Positions 3,077 to 10,869 of a DNA stretch of 64,000 nucleotides are shown here, one piece after another. The position numbers were made by a program, and so were the translations under genes. Below the pieces are notes generated by a model. It made no database searches, was not told the DNA's origin, and saw only the letters and a program-made list of their open reading frames with translations. This stretch comes from Candidatus Fervidifonticultor secundus (GTDB lineage Bacteria; Sysuimicrobiota; Sysuimicrobiia; Sysuimicrobiales; Humicultoraceae): assembly GCA_031459385.1 (NCBI GenBank), contig JAVKIP010000010.1, forward strand, positions 1 through 64,000. Reading direction: 5' to 3'. Every line of letters begins with the position of its first letter. Position 1 is the first letter of the stretch.

Positions 3077-3119
3077 TTGTCGCAGCCTTGACACAGAGTT
3101 CACACTGCCATTGTATGCT
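3077..3119 (+). promoter_or_regulatory. Pho-box-like 11-bp direct repeats and -10 element upstream of the DUF47-wHTH gene
   Basis: TTGTCG (3077), TTGACA (3088), TTCACA (3099) at 11-bp period; TATGCT at 3114-3119. Confidence 0.6.
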
Positions 3120-3186
3120 CACCGGTAAGACGGCGATCCCCGGGGGCCCACGAGGGTCGCGTGCCCGCGTGACGGAGGCGCTCGAC

Positions 3187-4140
3187 GTGACACCACCATC
3201 CCTGTCCCACCCTGCGAAGCCTGCGGCTTCCCTGGCGGCCGTGCGGCACGGGCGTGCCCTGCTCGAAGAGATGGCGGCCACGATCGAGCAGGCCGCCGTG
3301 GCCCTGGCGGCCGTCCTCGACCGCCGCGCCCCGGCGGAGGCGACCTGGCAGACGATCCGCGACCAGGAACACAAGGGCGACGCCATCGCCCGTGACCTGT
3401 TCGACCTGCTGGCAGCGGGTGGAGAGGTGCCCGTCGACCGTCCGGCCCTCCAGGCGCTGGTAGGGCTGCTGGACGACGTGCTGGACGCCATCGAGGCAGC
3501 GGCAGCCCGTCTGGCCATCCACCGGGTGCGCCGGCCGATCCAGCCCGCGCAGGCGCTGGGGCAGGCGGTGCTCGAGGCAGCGCGCGAGCTGCACCAGGCG
3601 ATCGCGGCCCTGGGCCGCGCGGCCGACATCTTCCCCCACACCCGCGCGCTGCACCGCCAGGAGAACCACGCCGACGACGTGCTGCGCGAGGCGATCGAGC
3701 ATCTCTTCGCCAACGGCGCCAGCGCCCGGGACATCATCAAGTGGAAGGACATCTGCGAGTTCCTGGAGGCGGCCACTGACCGGTGCGAGGACATCGCCAA
3801 CGTGCTGGAGACCCTGGTGGTGCGTGCTGGCCACGAGGGCCGGCTCACGGCAGGGCACGTGGTCCTGGACGTGGAGCGCCACGAGGTGACGGTTGCGGGC
3901 CAGCCGGTGCCGGTTTCGGTCAAAGAGTTCGAGGTGCTGCGCCTGCTGCTGCGCCACCAGGGCAAGGTGGTGCGTCGCCAGCGCCTGCTGCACGACGTCT
4001 GGGGCGACGACTACGTGGGCGACACGCGTACGCTGGACACACACGTCGGGTGGCTGCGCAAGAAGCTGGAAGCCCGGGGTGGCGTGCGCCTGGTCAGCGT
4101 GCGCGGTATCGGCTACCGGCTGGATCTGGTGCGCGCCTGA
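3187..4140 (+). CDS. DUF47/PhoU-like domain fused to an OmpR/PhoB-type winged-helix DNA-binding domain (no receiver domain)
   Basis: GGAGG at 3174 then GTG; EHKGD, LDDVLD, ENHAD, IIKWKDICEFLEAATDRCEDIANVLE (DUF47); KEFEVL, LLHDVWG, TRTLDTHVGWLRKKL, VRGIGYRL (Trans_reg_C). Confidence 0.88.
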   Translation: MTPPSLSHPAKPAASLAAVRHGRALLEEMAATIEQAAVALAAVLDRRAPAEATWQTIRDQEHKGDAIARDLFDLLAAGGEVPVDRPALQALVGLLDDVLDAIEAAAARLAIHRVRRPIQPAQALGQAVLEAARELHQAIAALGRAADIFPHTRALHRQENHADDVLREAIEHLFANGASARDIIKWKDICEFLEAATDRCEDIANVLETLVVRAGHEGRLTAGHVVLDVERHEVTVAGQPVPVSVKEFEVLRLLLRHQGKVVRRQRLLHDVWGDDYVGDTRTLDTHVGWLRKKLEARGGVRLVSVRGIGYRLDLVRA

Positions 4141-4455: not shown

Positions 4456-4521
4456 TTGGCCCACCCTTCACCGACATTTCGTTGAGGGTTGACCCACTCC
4501 CGACGCGGACGACGCTAGCGT
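4456..4521 (+). promoter_or_regulatory. Pho-box-like 11-bp repeat array and -10 element of the pstS promoter
   Basis: TTGGCC (4456), TTCACC (4467), TTCGTT (4478), TTGACC (4489) at exact 11-bp period; TAGCGT at 4516-4521. Confidence 0.62.
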
Positions 4522-4644
4522 AGAGACGGCCGGGCGGAAACGACGCACCGCAACGGTCCGGACCGGACCGCACGGCGGTCTGCGCGCTACGGACATGTCG
4601 CGCCAGAGCGCACGGCGGTGATCATGCACAGGAGGTGTTCATGT

Positions 4645-5799
4645 ATGTGGAGTGCACCTCAGAACGCTGGCCGTGGCGTACGGCTCCTGCCGGTCGTCCT
4701 GCTGCTGGCGTCCCTGCTGCTTGCCACGGGGGCCGGGCACACCCAGGACAGGCTTGGCGCCACGGCCAGCCCGCCGGGCACCATCGTCGTCGACGGATCC
4801 AGCACCGTAGGTCCGCTGACCAGCGCCGTGGCCGAGGAGTTCCGGAAGACGCCTCCGGGTCGCACGGTGCGCATCACCGTGGGCATCAGCGGCACCGGCG
4901 GCGGGTTCAAGAAGTTCTGCGCCAACAGCCCCCAGTCACGAACCGACATTCAGGATGCGTCCCGGCCCATTCAGGCCGAGGAGGACGACGCCTGCCAGCG
5001 CCACGGTGTCAGCTACGTCGAGGTGCCGGTGGCCATCGACGGGCTCAGCGTCGTGGTCAACCCGCGCAACACGTGGGCCGTCTGCATGACGCTGGGGGAA
5101 CTGAAGCGCATCTGGGAGCCTGGCGCCGAGCGTCGCGTCACGTCGTGGCGCCAGGTGCGGGGGACCTTCCCGGATCGGCCGCTGCGCCTGGCGGGGGCCG
5201 GCGCCGACTCCGGGACCTTCGACAGCTTCACCGAAATGGTGGTCGGCAAAGCCAAGGCCAGCCGCGGCGACTACCTGGCCACCGAGGACGACAACGTCAT
5301 CGTGCAGTTCGTGCAACGCGACGACGGCGGGCTGGGCTACTTCGGGCTGGCCTACCTCGAGGAGAACCTGGGCCGGTTGAAGGGCGTGGCCATCGACCCC
5401 AGCGACCGGGTCGACCTCGCCTCCGACGCCGAGTGCCGCGGGGTGACGCCCGACTTCGAGAACACCAAGACCGGCCGCTACCCGCTCACCCGGCCCCTCT
5501 TCATCTACCTGAACCGCACCAGCGCCCTGGCCAGGCCCGAGGTGCGGCAGTTCGCCGCGTGGTTTGTGGGGCAGGCGACCGGTGTCAATCTGGCGGTGGA
5601 CGACCCACGCCGTGGCGGTACCAAGACCAACCTGACCCGCTCGGTAGGGTACGTGGAGCTGCCCCAGGAGGTCTACGCTGCGGCCCGCCGCTGCGTCGCG
5701 CAGCTGCGCCCGGGCACGGCCTTCACGGAGGGCGGCAAGGCGGCGGGGCACGCCACGCTCCGGCAGGTGAGTACCGTCTACGTGCGCCACTGCCAGTGA
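4645..5799 (+). CDS. pstS: Phosphate ABC transporter substrate-binding protein
   Basis: Signal peptide; [47 protein letters not shown] at 4631. Confidence 0.95.
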
Positions 5800-6869
5800 C
5801 CGACGTGCACACGAAGCCGCACGTCGCAGCGGCCGGGGCCGCAAGCAAGGACACGGCCCCGGCTGTCCGGCAGCGGGGACACCCGCGGGAGCCGCAGCGG
5901 CGAAGCGAAGCAGCCGTGCGCTGGCTCCTGGCGGGCAGCGCGTATCTCTCCATCGCCGTCACGGTCGGCATCGCCACCGTGCTGGTCTACGAGACGGTGC
6001 AGTTCTTCCGGCTGCCCCTCGACGCCGCCGACCCGGCGCAGGTGGCCCGCCGCGCCGACCTGCGGCGGTTCGCCGAGGCCCGTCCCGACCTGGTGGGCCG
6101 ACCGCTGATGCTGGTCCGGGAGTTCGTCACCGAGACGATCTGGAGCCCGCTGTTTGCCACCAAGCGGTTCGGCGTCCTGCCGCTGGTCGCGGGCACGATC
6201 GTCACGAGCACCATCGCCCTGGCGGTGGCCGTGCCGCTGGGGTTGCTGGCGGCAGTTTACCTCAGCGAGATCGCCACACCTCGGCTGCGCACGCGGCTGA
6301 AGCCGGCCCTGGAGGTGCTTGCCGGGATTCCCACCATCGTCTACGGCTACTTCGCCCTGACGTTCGTCACACCGTGGCTGCAGGACCACGTCTTTGGGAG
6401 CCGGCTTGCAGGACAGAACGCCCTGGCGGCCGGGATCGTCATGGGAATGATGATCGTGCCCCTGGTGGCCTCGCTCAGTGAGGACGCCCTGCGCGCCGTG
6501 CCGCTGGAGCTCCGCCATGGGGCCTACGCCCTGGGCGCCACGCCCCTGGAGGTTGTGTGGAGAGTGGTGGTGCCGGCCGCCGCCTCCGGCGTGGGCGCCG
6601 CCTGCCTCCTGGCGCTCTCTCGAGCCGTAGGCGAGACGATGATCGTCGCCCTGGCGGCCGGGCAGATGCCCGCCTGGACGTTCAACCCGCTGGACGCCGT
6701 GGAGACCCTCACGGCCTTCATCGTGCAGGTGAGCCTGGGCGATACCCCGTACGGCTCGGTGGAGTACCGCACCCTCTTTGCGGCCGGCATGCTGCTGTTC
6801 ATCATGACGGCGGTGATGAACGTCACCAGCGTCTTGCTGATCCGCCGGGTCCGGGAGCGCTACGGATGA
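5796..6869 (+). CDS. pstC: Phosphate ABC transporter permease PstC
   Basis: GTGA overlap with the pstS stop; [25 protein letters not shown]. Confidence 0.95.
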
Positions 6870-7750
6870 GCGTGGCCCTGGCCATGCATCCGACGTGGGG
6901 TCGTCGGCTGCAACGACGGGCCGCCGCCGCGCGAGGCTTCGTCGCTGCCTGCCAGCTGGCAACCCTGACGGGTCTGGCCTTCCTGGGGTTCCTGCTGGCC
7001 GACGTGGCTCAAGACGCCCGCCTGTCCCTGGGACCACACCTGGTGACCGCCTACCCATCCCGGTTTCCCGCCCAGGCCGGCTACGCCAGCGCGCTGGCCG
7101 GCACTGTGCTGGTCATCGGCCTGATGGCGTTCCTGGCCTTCCCCGTGGGGGTGGCCGCCGCGGTCTACCTGGCCGAGTACGCGCCCGCCGGCCGGCTCAC
7201 CGCGGCCCTGCAGGTCAACATCGCGAACCTGGCGGCGGTGCCGTCGGTACTCTACGGCCTGCTAGGTCTGGGGGTCTTCGTGGAAGCGCTGCGCATGGGC
7301 AAGAGCGTGCTGGCGGGAGCCTGCACCCTGGCCCTGCTGGTACTCCCCCTGACGATCCTGGCGACCCGCGAAGCCCTCGACGGTGTTCCCCGCTCCATCC
7401 GCGAGGCCGCCTACGCCCTGGGCGCCACGCGGTGGCAGGTGGTGCGCCATCAGGTCCTGCCCGCTGCCGCACCGGGGATCTTCACCGGGGTCATCCTGGC
7501 CCTCTCACGGGCCGTGGGCGAAACCGCGCCGCTCATCATGCTGGGCGCGCTGCAGTACGTGCCGTTCCTCCCGCGCGGCCTCGGGGACTACTTCACGGTC
7601 CTGCCGATCCAGATCTTCAACTACGTGTCGCTGCCACAGCCGGCCTTCCACCGGGTGGCTGCCGCGGGCATCGTCCTGCTGCTGACCGTGCTGCTGGGGC
7701 TGAACGGCACGGCGATCTGGCTGCGGAACCGGTGGCAGGTGCGCTGGTAA
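6866..7750 (+). CDS. pstA: Phosphate ABC transporter permease PstA
   Basis: ATGA overlap; [32 protein letters not shown]. Confidence 0.95.
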
Positions 7751-7776: not shown

Positions 7777-8595
7777 ATGGGACAGGCCATCGACACACGG
7801 CCCCGGCCGACGGCGCCGGCTGAATCCCTCGCGGCTTCCGAGCCGGTGCTGGCCGTGCAAGATCTCCGGGTGTGGTACGGCACACGACCGGCGCTGCGAG
7901 GTATCACCTTCGATATTCCCGCGCGGCGTATCACGGCCGTCATCGGGCCGTCGGGCTCGGGCAAGAGCACCCTGATCCGGTGTCTCAATCGCATGAACGA
8001 TCTGCTGCCCGGCACCCGCGTCGAAGGGAGCGTGCGATTCCACGGCCAGGATCTCTACGCCCCGGGGGTCGATCCCGTCGCCGTCCGCATACGCATCGGC
8101 ATGGTGTTCCAGAAGCCCAACCCCTTCCCCAGGTCGATCTACGAGAACGTGGCCTTCGGGATACGCCTGCACTGGCGCCTGTCGCGTCGCGACCTGGACG
8201 ACCGGGTGGAGCGGGCGCTGCGGCAGGCCGCGCTGTGGGACGAGGTCAAAGACGTGCTGCACACCCGCGGCGGCCTGGAGGTCTCGGGCGGCCAGCAGCA
8301 GCGCCTGTGCATCGCGCGCGCCCTGGCCGTGGAGCCCGAGGTGCTCCTGATGGACGAACCGTGCTCGGCGCTGGACCCGTCCGCGACGGCCCGCATCGAG
8401 GAACTCATGGTGCAGCTGGCCAGCGCCTACACCATCGTCATCGTCACGCACAACATGCAGCAGGCGGCCAGGGTCTCGCACGTCACCGCGTTCCTGCTGG
8501 AGGGGATGCTGGTGGAGGTGGGGCCTACTGCCGGCCTCTTCACGCGGCCGCGAGACCGCCGGACGGAAGACTACATTACCGGTCGGTTCGGATGA
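7777..8595 (+). CDS. pstB: Phosphate ABC transporter ATP-binding protein
   Basis: [51 protein letters not shown]. Confidence 0.97.
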
Positions 8596-8793: not shown

Positions 8794-10869
8794 TTACAGC
8801 CGCAGCGACCGGGCCACCAGCGCCGCCGCCAGCACCACCACCAGCGCCAGCGCGGCCAGTCCCACGGCCGCCTGCGCCGCTGGTGGCCAGCCGTAGGCCA
8901 CGGATGCCAGCAGCCCGCCCACGGCGGCCAGCGTCGCGGCCACCAGCCCCACCATCCGCCAGTCCACCAGCCGCACGACGACGCCCGGCTCTTCTTCCAT
9001 GAGGTAGAACGGCACGTCGGTCACCACGGTAATCCAGTCGGCCCGGCGCCGGCGAAAGTAGAGGGCAGCCTTGAGCAGCAGGGCGTTGTGGTTGTGCAGC
9101 AGGAAGTGCCACCAGCGGGCCGGGACGAACTCGGGCAACACCACCGTCAGGTGCTGATCAACTCCGACTTCCCACTCCAGCTCGTCGAGGTAACGCAGGA
9201 TCGGCTGGAGCACCGACCGGTAGGGCGAGGGCAGCACCTTCAGCGGGATCCCCATGCCCCAGGTCGGCCACCGCCGGACCACGTCCGCGGTCTGCTGGGG
9301 GTCGACGTCCACGATGACGGCCGTCACGTCGTCGGACAGCGCGCGGGCGTACCGCAGGGCCGGCAGGACGCCGCGGTTGACGCCGCCCACAGGGACGACG
9401 ACCTTGGGGCGACGCAGCGGCCGGGGAACCTCCACTCCCTCCAGCGTCAGCTGCGCCCGCACGTCGTCGTAGTGCCGGTGGATGCTGCGCATCATCCACA
9501 CCAGGGCCGGGACCAGGCCGGCCACGATCCACGCGCCGTCGCGCCACTTGGCGACCGTAACCACCACCAGCACGACGCCCGTGGCAGCCGCGCCCAGCAG
9601 GTTGAAGGCCAGGCTGCGCCGCCACCCCCGCCCCCGCCGCTGCCACCAGCGCCGCACCATGCCGGCCTGCGACAGGGTGAACGACAGGAAGACACCCACG
9701 GCGTAGAGCGGGATCAGCCCATGCGTCCGGGCGTCGAAGACGGCGATCAGCGCGCCGGCGACCAGCGCCAGGAGCACGATGCCATTGGCGTACACCAGGC
9801 GGTCGCCCAGGTTGCGCATCTGGTTGGGCATGAACCGGTCGCGTGCCAGGATGGCCGAGAGCCGCGGGAAGTCGGCAAAGCTGGTGTTGGCCGCCAGGAT
9901 GAGGATCATGGCGGTGGCGGCCTGGACCATCAGGTACAGTGACCCGTCCCCGAAGACCGTGCGCGCGATCTGAGAGACGACGGTCTCGGTCTCGGTGGGG
10001 ATGATCCCCAGGTGGGTCGCCAGGTAGGTGAGGCCCAGGAACAGCGACGCGAGGATGGCCGCCATCCAGACGAGCGTGACGGCGGCGTTGTGGGCCTCCG
10101 GCGGCCGGAAGGCGGGGATCCCGTTGCTGATGGCCTCCACGCCGGTCATGGCGGCCGACCCCGAGGCAAAGGCCTTGAGGACTACGAACACCGTCAGGGC
10201 CTGGGCGGGCACGGCCTCGGCCGCCGGACGGGCCGTCACAGGAAGCGCCCCCGCGGGCGGCATGGCCGCGGGCGGGCTCGCCGCCGATCCGAGCCGCACC
10301 AGCCCCACCACCACCAAAAGCCCCATGAGCACGATGAACGCATAGGTCGGCACGCTGAACACCGTGCCCGACTCGCGCACCCCGCGCAGGTTCACCACGG
10401 CGATAACCGCCACGGCCAGCAGCGCCAGCGTTACCCGGTGGGCGTAGAGGAGCGGCACCGCCGACGTGACGGCCGCCACCCCTGCCGAGACGCTGACCGC
10501 CACCGTCATGACATAGTCGATGAGCAGCGCCGCCGCCGCCACCAGCCCCGGCCACAGCCCCAGGTTGTCATGGGCCACGATGTACGCCCCACCGCCCGCC
10601 GGGTACGCGTGGATCGTCTGGAAGTACGAAAAGGCCACGACCACCAGCACCGCCGCGATGGCCAGGGCCACCGGCCACGCCAGCTGTAGCGCCGCCGGGC
10701 CGGCGACCAGCAGGGCCAGCAGGATCTCCTCGGTGGCGTAGGCCGACGACGACAGCGCATCCGAGGCGAAGACCGCCAGGCCCTGCACGCGGTTGAGGCG
10801 CTCGTGGACCATGGCCTGCGTGGGCAGGGGCGGCCCGATGAGCACCCGACGCACGACGTTTACGACCAC
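8794..10869 (-). CDS. APC-family transporter, KimA/YdaO-like potassium/proton symporter
   Basis: FASDALSSSAYATEEIL, LLIDYVMTVAVS, TGVEAISNG, LIPLYAVGVF, cytoplasmic domain ending in VPFYL. Confidence 0.88.
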   Translation of the reverse strand: MVVNVVRRVLIGPPLPTQAMVHERLNRVQGLAVFASDALSSSAYATEEILLALLVAGPAALQLAWPVALAIAAVLVVVAFSYFQTIHAYPAGGGAYIVAHDNLGLWPGLVAAAALLIDYVMTVAVSVSAGVAAVTSAVPLLYAHRVTLALLAVAVIAVVNLRGVRESGTVFSVPTYAFIVLMGLLVVVGLVRLGSAASPPAAMPPAGALPVTARPAAEAVPAQALTVFVVLKAFASGSAAMTGVEAISNGIPAFRPPEAHNAAVTLVWMAAILASLFLGLTYLATHLGIIPTETETVVSQIARTVFGDGSLYLMVQAATAMILILAANTSFADFPRLSAILARDRFMPNQMRNLGDRLVYANGIVLLALVAGALIAVFDARTHGLIPLYAVGVFLSFTLSQAGMVRRWWQRRGRGWRRSLAFNLLGAAATGVVLVVVTVAKWRDGAWIVAGLVPALVWMMRSIHRHYDDVRAQLTLEGVEVPRPLRRPKVVVPVGGVNRGVLPALRYARALSDDVTAVIVDVDPQQTADVVRRWPTWGMGIPLKVLPSPYRSVLQPILRYLDELEWEVGVDQHLTVVLPEFVPARWWHFLLHNHNALLLKAALYFRRRRADWITVVTDVPFYLMEEEPGVVVRLVDWRMVGLVAATLAAVGGLLASVAYGWPPAAQAAVGLAALALVVVLAAALVARSLRL

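Follow-up and report, generated by a model that had tools for sequence, protein, structure and literature searches.

A conserved fusion of a DUF47/PitR-like domain and a PhoB-type DNA-binding domain as a probable kinase-independent phosphate regulator in Sysuimicrobiota

Introduction

How might the genes of a phosphate-specific transporter (pst) be controlled at a locus at which no kinase was found? This question is raised by a gene of Candidatus Fervidifonticultor secundus (phylum Sysuimicrobiota) at positions 3187-4140 of a stretch of 64,000 nucleotides (nt) that was analysed as a whole (contig JAVKIP010000010.1, positions 1 to 64,000 of the forward strand; hereafter the window). In this gene, a single open reading frame (ORF) directly upstream of pstSCAB joins a PhoU-like DUF47 domain of the PitR type to the winged helix of OmpR/PhoB-type regulators. 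In its architecture, the fusion is a real and conserved variant of the Pho regulators. We consider it likely that the protein is a kinase-independent, autoregulated activator of Pho genes with the PitR-like domain as its phosphate input, which probably turns on the phosphate genes without the usual kinase relay. This reading of a kinase-free autoregulated activator was drawn from the linkage to pst, the occupation of the slot held elsewhere by PhoB-PhoR (PhoBR), the repeat arrays at the fusion's own promoter and before pstS, the register of one such array to a -10-like hexamer in a PhoBR-bearing sister genus, and an invariant Val-Trp-Gly (VWG) loop.

Phosphate sensing and signal relay by PhoU-family proteins are a long-standing open question, and in model organisms the answer is divided among the transporter, PhoU or PitR, the kinase and the response regulator. 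Here a PhoU-like domain is wired to a DNA-binding domain with candidate operators, so that DNA binding or a reporter would report what the domain senses. The locus also presents the replacement of a two-component by a one-component system in an unchanged genomic place, and ancestral-type, mixed and derived regulator states are all still present in the lineage. The window (71% G+C) belongs to a genome of 59 contigs that is 97.6% complete (G000).

Domain architecture of the fusion protein

The gene and its parts are as follows, all on the plus strand (aa, amino acids; AF2, AlphaFold2):

3187..4140, plus strand: fusion gene, DUF47/PitR-like domain and OmpR/PhoB winged helix (P0001, 317 aa; from ORF, Pfam and AF2 model)
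3173..3177, plus strand: ribosome-binding site GGAGG, 9 nt 5' of the GTG start (read from the sequence)
3223..3825, plus strand: DUF47/PhoU_div six-helix domain, aa 13-213 (from Pfam, AF2 helices, and profile and fold match to 3l39)
3841..4128, plus strand: OmpR/PhoB-type winged-helix DNA-binding domain, aa 219-314, with the recognition helix at aa 281-298 (from Pfam, profile match to 2oqr and fold matches)

The frame that ends at 4140 is open as far back as 2944. The GTG at 3187 was chosen as the start, as it is preceded by the GGAGG, and the resulting 317-aa form equals a protein already called on record (P0002, 100% identity). PhoU_div (PF01865) matched with 69.5 bits (cut-off 24.4) over profile positions 10-213 of 214, and Trans_reg_C (PF00486) with 84.8 bits (cut-off 26.2) over all of its positions, 1-77 of 77. 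No Pfam match to a receiver domain (Response_reg, PF00072) was obtained in the protein, the entire N-terminal part being the helical DUF47 domain, nor was there a match to PhoU itself (PF01895, two PhoU repeats) at E-values up to 0.01. Among NCBIfam models, the C-terminal part was closest to the PhoB equivalog TIGR02154, which aligned only over model positions 129-226 and, at 72.2 bits, did not reach its cut-off of 296.2.

The AF2 model, for which 51 homologues served as input, has a predicted local distance difference test score (pLDDT) of 91.4 and a predicted template modelling score (pTM) of 0.85. Six long helices (residues 13-44, 50-76, 85-111, 119-143, 149-175 and 180-213) are followed by a complete OmpR-type effector fold, with a linker of about five residues between the two domains and a confident model across the junction. 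The helical part resembles the DUF47 structure 3l39 as well as the structures 2olt and 2iiu (Foldseek template modelling scores of 0.85, 0.73 and 0.67), and the profile search likewise returned 3l39 of the Protein Data Bank (PDB) as its best solved relative (E 3.4e-31). For the winged helix, the best solved relative was RegX3 (2oqr, E 1.5e-28), about 20 bits above the next effector domains, and the fold search superposed it on the effector domains of PhoP, PhoB and RegX3.

Four acidic pairs are carried by the DUF47 domain, namely E61/D65, D96/D100, E159/D163 and E194/D198. Among 32 fused and stand-alone DUF47 sequences, E61, D65, D96, D100, E159, D163 and E194 are invariant, while D198, E201 and D202 are conserved in at least 90%. 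The TFxTPxDREDI loop motif of stand-alone members is gone from the fused domain, as judged against 25 stand-alone proteins. In the recognition helix, the fusion has RTLDTH(I/V)(G/A)W where the phylum's PhoB-type regulators have RTVDVHV(R/S)W. The VWG loop (W272, G273) is invariant across the 51-sequence alignment of the fusion family; the matching loop of PhoB contacts sigma-70.

With sensory-type and DNA-binding domains in one polypeptide and neither a receiver nor a kinase domain, the protein is a one-component transcription factor. It is not a single-domain, Pit-adjacent DUF47 protein, being fused to Trans_reg_C and adjoining pst, and it has the effector domain of the OmpR/PhoB response regulators without their phospho-acceptor receiver and cognate kinase. 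An earlier reading of the window, made from the sequence only, had described a complete DUF47 bundle with acidic motifs and an OmpR/PhoB winged helix in one ORF; Pfam, the AF2 model and the column conservation all bear this out, and Pfam and the gene map agree with its further statements that a receiver domain is absent and that the gene lies upstream of pstSCAB.

Conservation, distribution and origin

Both domains were present in all of the 120 best among more than 340 homologues (about 290-340 aa, 62-78% identity), so the joined PhoU_div and Trans_reg_C architecture proposed for a domain search was indeed recovered. The records are labelled "DUF47 family protein", with Armatimonadota or "bacterium" as the source. 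The columns of the 51-sequence alignment are on average 65% identical, and both halves contain invariant residues. Among 1.84 billion representatives clustered at 50% identity, one full-length fused representative (P0122) and fragments were found; the next matches were stand-alone DUF47 proteins of about 205 aa, and the few matches in two stretches were tandem response regulators or a PhoU-DUF47 protein. A search of genome contigs with the one fusion protein gave 48 loci, all of them winged-helix matches in ordinary response regulators from other phyla. The fusion is not described in the titles and abstracts found, and the text of a survey of PhoU-like proteins, its supplements aside, deals with single-domain PF01865 proteins only and does not use the words "fused" or "DNA-binding" (PMC13170248).

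Within the phylum, 94 species genomes of one order were sampled, two of them unpublished (G016 and G024); these two are included in the tallies, but none of the conclusions rests on them. The full-length fusion was detected in 46 of these genomes, with 20 in family f1, 13 in f3, 12 in f4 and one in f6, and pieces cut by contig ends were detected in a further four to six. No copy was detected in the families f2, f5 (0 of 12) and f7 or in the genera g21, g22, g24 and g25 (0 of 9). The possibility that the fusion is an assembly chimera or a phoB gene in decay after a deletion, for which no support was found beyond the short contigs of many related loci, can thus be set against the same junction in all 120 homologues listed and in the 46 genomes, the invariant residues in both domains and the confident AF2 model across the junction. 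We regard it as practically negligible and, judged on sequence conservation, already refuted; neither a chimera nor a one-off deletion product, as the sequence-only reading had considered, accounts for a gene conserved on this scale.

In the trees, the fusion forms a single clade for each domain, with supports of 100/100 and 100, on long stems of 0.97 and 1.39 changes per site, which supports one origin of the fusion within the phylum. The deeper forks of both domain trees give no resolution as to the sister group of either domain. The derivation of the fusion from a neighbouring phoB minus its receiver was rejected as unproven, given the long stems and the unsettled deep forks. Two genomes (G020 and G021) keep a stand-alone PitR gene beside the fusion, indicating that PitR was not simply consumed in the fusion.

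Linkage to pst and the place of PhoB-PhoR

The comparison covered 32 fusion loci and a further 21 from genomes that lack the fusion or carry PhoBR, all mapped with the proteins of the window's genome. Within the fetched stretches, pst genes occur in 22 of the 32 fusion loci, and the usual order is fusion-pstS-pstC-pstA-pstB-phoU(-phosphatase-pyrophosphatase). Of the 10 loci that remain, six end at a contig edge within about 1.8 kb of the gene, three belong to genus g23, and L152 contains phoU together with a pstS-like ORF. The operon in the window comprises:

4618..5799, plus strand: pstS, phosphate-binding protein, with a likely ATG start at 4645 after AGGAGG (PF12849, 104.8 bits)
5850..6869, plus strand: pstC permease (PF00528 and synteny)
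6866..7750, plus strand: pstA permease (PF00528 and synteny)
7777..8595, plus strand: pstB ATPase (PF00005, 106 bits)

In the congener G001 (4 contigs, 97% complete), the fusion stands directly after pstB, the normal place of phoU, and PF01895 gave no match at all in this near-complete genome.

The same slot is held by PhoBR in sister genera. In g21-g25, 11 of 14 loci have the order (Pit-)DUF47-response regulator-short PhoR-type kinase-pstSCAB-phoU, and three loci of f5 have pstSCAB(-phoU)-phosphatase-response regulator-kinase. A query with the g21 kinase gave matches over the full length at 60% identity or more in 14 genomes, all of f4, and matches of 43-48% identity and similar length in f5 genomes. 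All other genomes, including that of the window, returned only a WalK-like kinase at about 40% identity, aligned from query residue ~40 onwards, in frames of more than 590 aa, and this kinase is also present in PhoBR-bearing genomes. No PhoR-type kinase was therefore found in the window's genome with the phylum's PhoR as the query, only the universal WalK-like one, in line with the premise of kinase independence. On these sequence comparisons, the distributions of the fusion and PhoBR appear largely complementary. As the fusion occupies, over most of the phylum, the place of PhoB-PhoR of the sister genera, it would do their job without phosphotransfer.

Six Trans_reg_C domains were counted in the window's genome, in two fusions, three response regulators (on contigs C12, C5 and C9) and an odd protein on C58. 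The C12 response regulator and kinase form a WalRK/PnpRS-like pair among branched-chain amino-acid transporter genes, which reaches 263.7 of 296.2, 275.7 of 334.2 and 362.2 of 400 bits against the PhoB, PhoR and PnpS models, respectively. That this pair is PhoBR was rejected as the main reading: the kinase has an extracytoplasmic domain of about 150 aa with HAMP and PAS domains and matches WalK best, and the pair, found across the entire phylum, has orthologues in genomes that also possess a true pst-linked PhoBR. The C5-type regulator, too, has homologues in all 94 genomes. The check for phoR and phoB that had been proposed for the genome thus came out in two ways, with no PhoR-type kinase and with a pair just under the PhoB and PhoR cut-offs.

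Four DUF47 matches were obtained in the same genome, two beside Pit transporters (C23 and C59), the window's gene and a second fusion. The stand-alone DUF47 genes are the two that adjoin Pit, as expected from the statement that DUF47 usually accompanies Pit, with which the text of the PhoU-like survey, where it treats PitR, agrees (PMC13170248). The second fusion (C33:1-2314, L032) has 68% identity over aa 85-314; the contig begins inside the gene, leaving the first ~80 residues unassembled, and a 51-kb contig in the records encodes an identical protein at full length (P0084, 312 aa). Downstream of the C33 copy lie phoU, a low-molecular-weight (LMW)-phosphatase/ArsC-like gene and an inorganic pyrophosphatase gene. 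The sequence-only reading had listed no phoR, intact phoU or pit gene at the locus. This stands for the window's contig, on which no match to PhoU, Pit or PhoR-like genes was obtained, but does not extend to the whole genome, with an intact phoU beside the second fusion on C33 and DUF47-Pit pairs on C23 and C59.

Repeat arrays and promoters

The repeats and the hexamers next to them in the window are:

3088..3109, plus strand: two 11-nt direct-repeat units, TTGACACAGAG and TTCACACTGCC, a Pho-box-like candidate site over the -35 region of the fusion gene
3114..3119, plus strand: candidate -10 hexamer TATGCT, 4 nt past the last unit (read from the sequence)
4456..4499, plus strand: four 11-nt units, TTGGCCCACCC, TTCACCGACAT, TTCGTTGAGGG and TTGACCCACTC, 5' of pstS
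4516..4521, plus strand: candidate pstS -10 hexamer TAGCGT, 16 nt past the last unit (read from the sequence)

Pho-box-like repeats had been suspected near 3077-3110 and 4456-4510; they could be placed at 3088-3109 and 4456-4499, are conserved in relatives and keep a fixed register to the -10 hexamer. The box pattern was defined as TTSRC-N6-TTSRC (11-bp phasing), with N5 and N8 as spacing controls. It gave 72 matches in 25 of the 28 fusion loci outside g23 (401 kb) and four for each control; in the remaining three loci (L114, L123 and L124), no strict TTSRC pair was found. In the 14 PhoBR loci of f4 (206 kb), the three matches equal the background, and the pattern TTAA[CGT]-N6-TTAA[CGT] is found there instead, with 52 matches in 11 of 14 loci and none in the spacing controls.

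In the fusion loci, arrays of three to five units lie in intergenic regions before the fusion gene and before pstS, and in nearly all of them a TAnnnT hexamer follows after 4 nt, the alternative spacing being 15-16 nt. At the matching register before the fusion gene, relatives have TATGCT, TATCCT or TATAAT. The congener G001 shows the same two layouts as the window, its four-unit array before pstS (L113) being followed by 16 nt and TAGGCT. In L134, from a PhoBR-bearing sister genus, the proximal unit of a TTAAC array is also followed by 4 nt and a -10-like TATGCT. From linkage and distribution, we infer that the fusion protein is the binder of the TTSRC boxes.

No sigma-70-type promoter with a spacing of 16-18 nt was found between 2900 and 4700. 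Two TT(G/C)ACA motifs lie 20 and 9 nt 5' of TATGCT (the nearest TTGACA at 20 nt), distances at which neither is usable as a -35 element.

Leaders differ among the fusion genes. In many relatives (L114-L152), the TATGCT, TATCCT or TATAAT hexamer lies just 6-10 nt before the fusion ATG, which suggests leaderless transcripts; the window's gene, unlike these, has a leader of about 65 nt with GGAGG.

Boxes were also observed elsewhere. Three phased TTCAC units, 15 nt and a -10-like hexamer are located at C5:5945-5971 (minus strand) of the window's genome and at G001:C1:1625794-1625820, with the same layout in G038 and G077, before an operon encoding a membrane protein with a SHOCT domain, an OmpR-type regulator and a kinase; the array may serve this regulator itself or may be another target of the fusion. 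A two-unit TTCAC box with a -10-like hexamer is kept across two genera (C45:104928-104943, plus strand, in the window's genome, and L126 in G013) before a small ORF, downstream of which the window's genome encodes a secreted double-rhodanese-like protein. Close to the pst-phoU genes of L116 and L128, a small ORF (63-80 aa), conserved and with the motif ...DGT.RAEV.L.G..., is likewise preceded by four-unit arrays and may also belong to the regulon.

Proposed mechanism and alternative explanations

In the proposed mechanism, the fusion protein would bind head-to-tail on the 11-bp-phased TT(C/G)(A/G)C units over the -35 region and, so bound, would activate its own promoter and that of pstSCAB(-phoU) when phosphate is scarce. 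We infer activation as the sign of regulation, and likewise the mode of sensing, in which the phosphate input would enter via the PitR/DUF47 (PhoU-like) domain. In the preferred version, the PhoU-like domain itself would read the cell's phosphate at the conserved acidic E/D-xxx-D sites, and this sensing would gate oligomerisation or DNA binding.

Several observations weigh against the activator reading. In the window alone, the strict pair has two matches with 0.85 expected, and 21 of 100 shuffles reach two; as the boxes in the window alone are thus within chance, the case rests on the related loci. Genome-wide, the strict pair has 24 matches in the window's genome, no more than out-of-phase spacings, with only about five in promoter-like places. 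The switch of box type is unclean, since genus g26 has the fusion and mixed TTAAC/TTGAC arrays before pstS. Both regulators occur together in g23 (G064, G066, G067 and G069), where it is PhoBR that adjoins the pst operon and the fusion has another location, and about a dozen f1 genomes, several of them more than 95% complete, show neither regulator with these queries. The five-residue linker is hard to square with a symmetric DUF47 dimer on direct repeats, and the trees do not place the winged helix within the phylum's PhoB or the DUF47 domain within its own PitR. Three further points, concerning the hexamers and the binder of the boxes, are taken up with the alternatives to which they belong. 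A genome-wide regulon list from the strict two-unit pattern was dropped, as its 24 sites do not exceed the out-of-phase controls.

The sign of regulation could be the opposite, with the fusion sitting on the -35 region to shut pst and its own gene in phosphate-replete cells and leaving on starvation. The boxes do overlap the core promoter, and TGn, an extension with which a promoter can do without a -35 element, stands before several -10 hexamers; such promoters may run without an activator, which would fit repression. PitR and PhoU, too, are described as negative on the Pho response in the sections of the survey that concern them (PMC13170248). We nevertheless judge repression unlikely. The TTAAC array of L134, in a genus that bears PhoBR, has the same unit-plus-4-nt register to TATGCT, a location from which members of the PhoB family activate. 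At 9 and 20 nt from the -10 hexamer, the adjacent units are unfit as -35 elements, no standard promoter was found between 2900 and 4700, and the VWG loop is invariant in the family.

Other OmpR-family regulators could also bind TTSRC-type boxes, and a C5-type or WalR/PnpR-like protein might run the Pho response, with the fusion having a different or accessory role. The C12 pair comes close to the PhoB, PhoR and PnpS cut-offs, and TTCAC triplets precede the C5-type regulator operon in the window's genome, G001, G038 and G077, as does a TTCAC pair in G083 (f5), a genome without the fusion. Both types are, however, distributed over the whole phylum and are also present where PhoBR is pst-linked and the boxes are TTAAC, so that their occurrence follows neither the box type nor the loss of PhoBR. 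Both pairs are encoded away from pst, and the C5 kinase of the window's genome has an in-frame TAG. An explanation along these lines appears quite improbable to us.

As to the sensing itself, the kinase-free activator may work in either of two modes, with phosphate or metal-phosphate bound directly at the acidic sites, or with the domain held by the working transporter. In the second mode, the PhoU-like domain would dock on working Pst (PstB) or PhoU while phosphate flows, keeping the fusion inactive or off the DNA, and stalled transport would release it to activate. E. coli PhoU contacts PstB and PhoR. In nearly all cases pstSCAB accompanies the fusion, and in most cases phoU does so too, the second copy in the window's genome directly precedes phoU, and each PhoU-like clade works with its own importer according to the text of the survey (PMC13170248). 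Against this, G001 has the fusion without PhoU, which argues only against PhoU as an obligate partner, and S. aureus PitR gave no two-hybrid contact with PhoR or transporter proteins in the experiments covered by the text of PMC11705898. We hold transporter coupling to be possible but doubtful. The first mode belongs to a fuller proposal, which we put forward tentatively: a one-polypeptide phosphate switch, in which a domain of the PhoU superfamily would itself bind phosphate or metal-phosphate and gate a PhoB-type domain. Over most of the phylum, this switch would have displaced PhoR and PhoB, as well as PhoU in certain species, with a concurrent shift of the Pho box from TTAAC to TT(C/G)AC.

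Comparison with known regulators

The fusion shares the effector fold and family, the pst linkage and the 11-bp-phased repeats over the -35 region with PhoB of E. coli, PhoP of Bacillus and Streptomyces and RegX3 of Mycobacterium; unlike them, it has no receiver, phospho-acceptor aspartate or partner kinase. It also differs from the PhoB-type regulators of its own phylum in the recognition helix (TLDTH.GW, in place of their TVDVHV(R/S)W). Winged helices driven without a phosphorylated receiver are otherwise found in the receiver-less or phosphorylation-independent OmpR-type regulators CadC/ToxR, SARP/AfsR-like proteins and GlnR, whose inputs are membrane or periplasmic sensors, BTAD/NB-ARC domains and aspartate-less receivers. 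We know of no PhoU-like domain in regulators of these types.

With S. aureus PitR (DUF47/PhoU_div), the fusion shares the Pfam family, the fold and the family-invariant acidic residues. PitR is a single-domain protein encoded with Pit that acts through PhoPR, whereas the fusion carries a DNA-binding domain and is encoded with pst; from stand-alone DUF47 members in general, it is set apart by the lost TFxTPxDREDI motif and its separate long-branch clade. In the text of the two papers concerned, PitR pairs with Pit and restrains PhoPR in phosphate excess (PMC13170248), and it homodimerizes (PMC11705898). PhoU (PF01895) belongs to a related helical-bundle superfamily, and the G001 fusion takes its position after pstB; the fusion has no PF01895 match, and PhoU has no DNA-binding domain.

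Other genes of the window and of related genomes

The phosphatase-pyrophosphatase pair next to the second fusion has a counterpart in the window's genome at C23:148951-153657, where a second such pair (60% and 76% identity to the C33 pair) lies beside DUF47-Pit; these accessory genes thus accompany both types of phosphate-importer locus. The single in-frame TAG of the C5 histidine kinase (C5:3642-5006, minus strand) is located in the HisKA region and reflects either a broken gene or a sequencing error. The C58 protein (C58:56873-57736, minus strand) has a receiver-less OmpR-type winged helix at its N-terminus and a C-terminal part without an assigned family.

In g23, the fusion of L130 (G069:C17, 10895-14311) is followed by a PotABCD-type ATP-binding cassette (ABC) transporter. 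Its binding protein shows a weak resemblance, unrelated to PhoS, to PhnS, a binder of 2-aminoethylphosphonate, with 31.5 bits, far below the cut-off. In the window, pstB is directly followed by a gene on the minus strand (8794-10869) for a 690-aa AA_permease_2 protein, whose last ~250 residues extend beyond the Pfam match.

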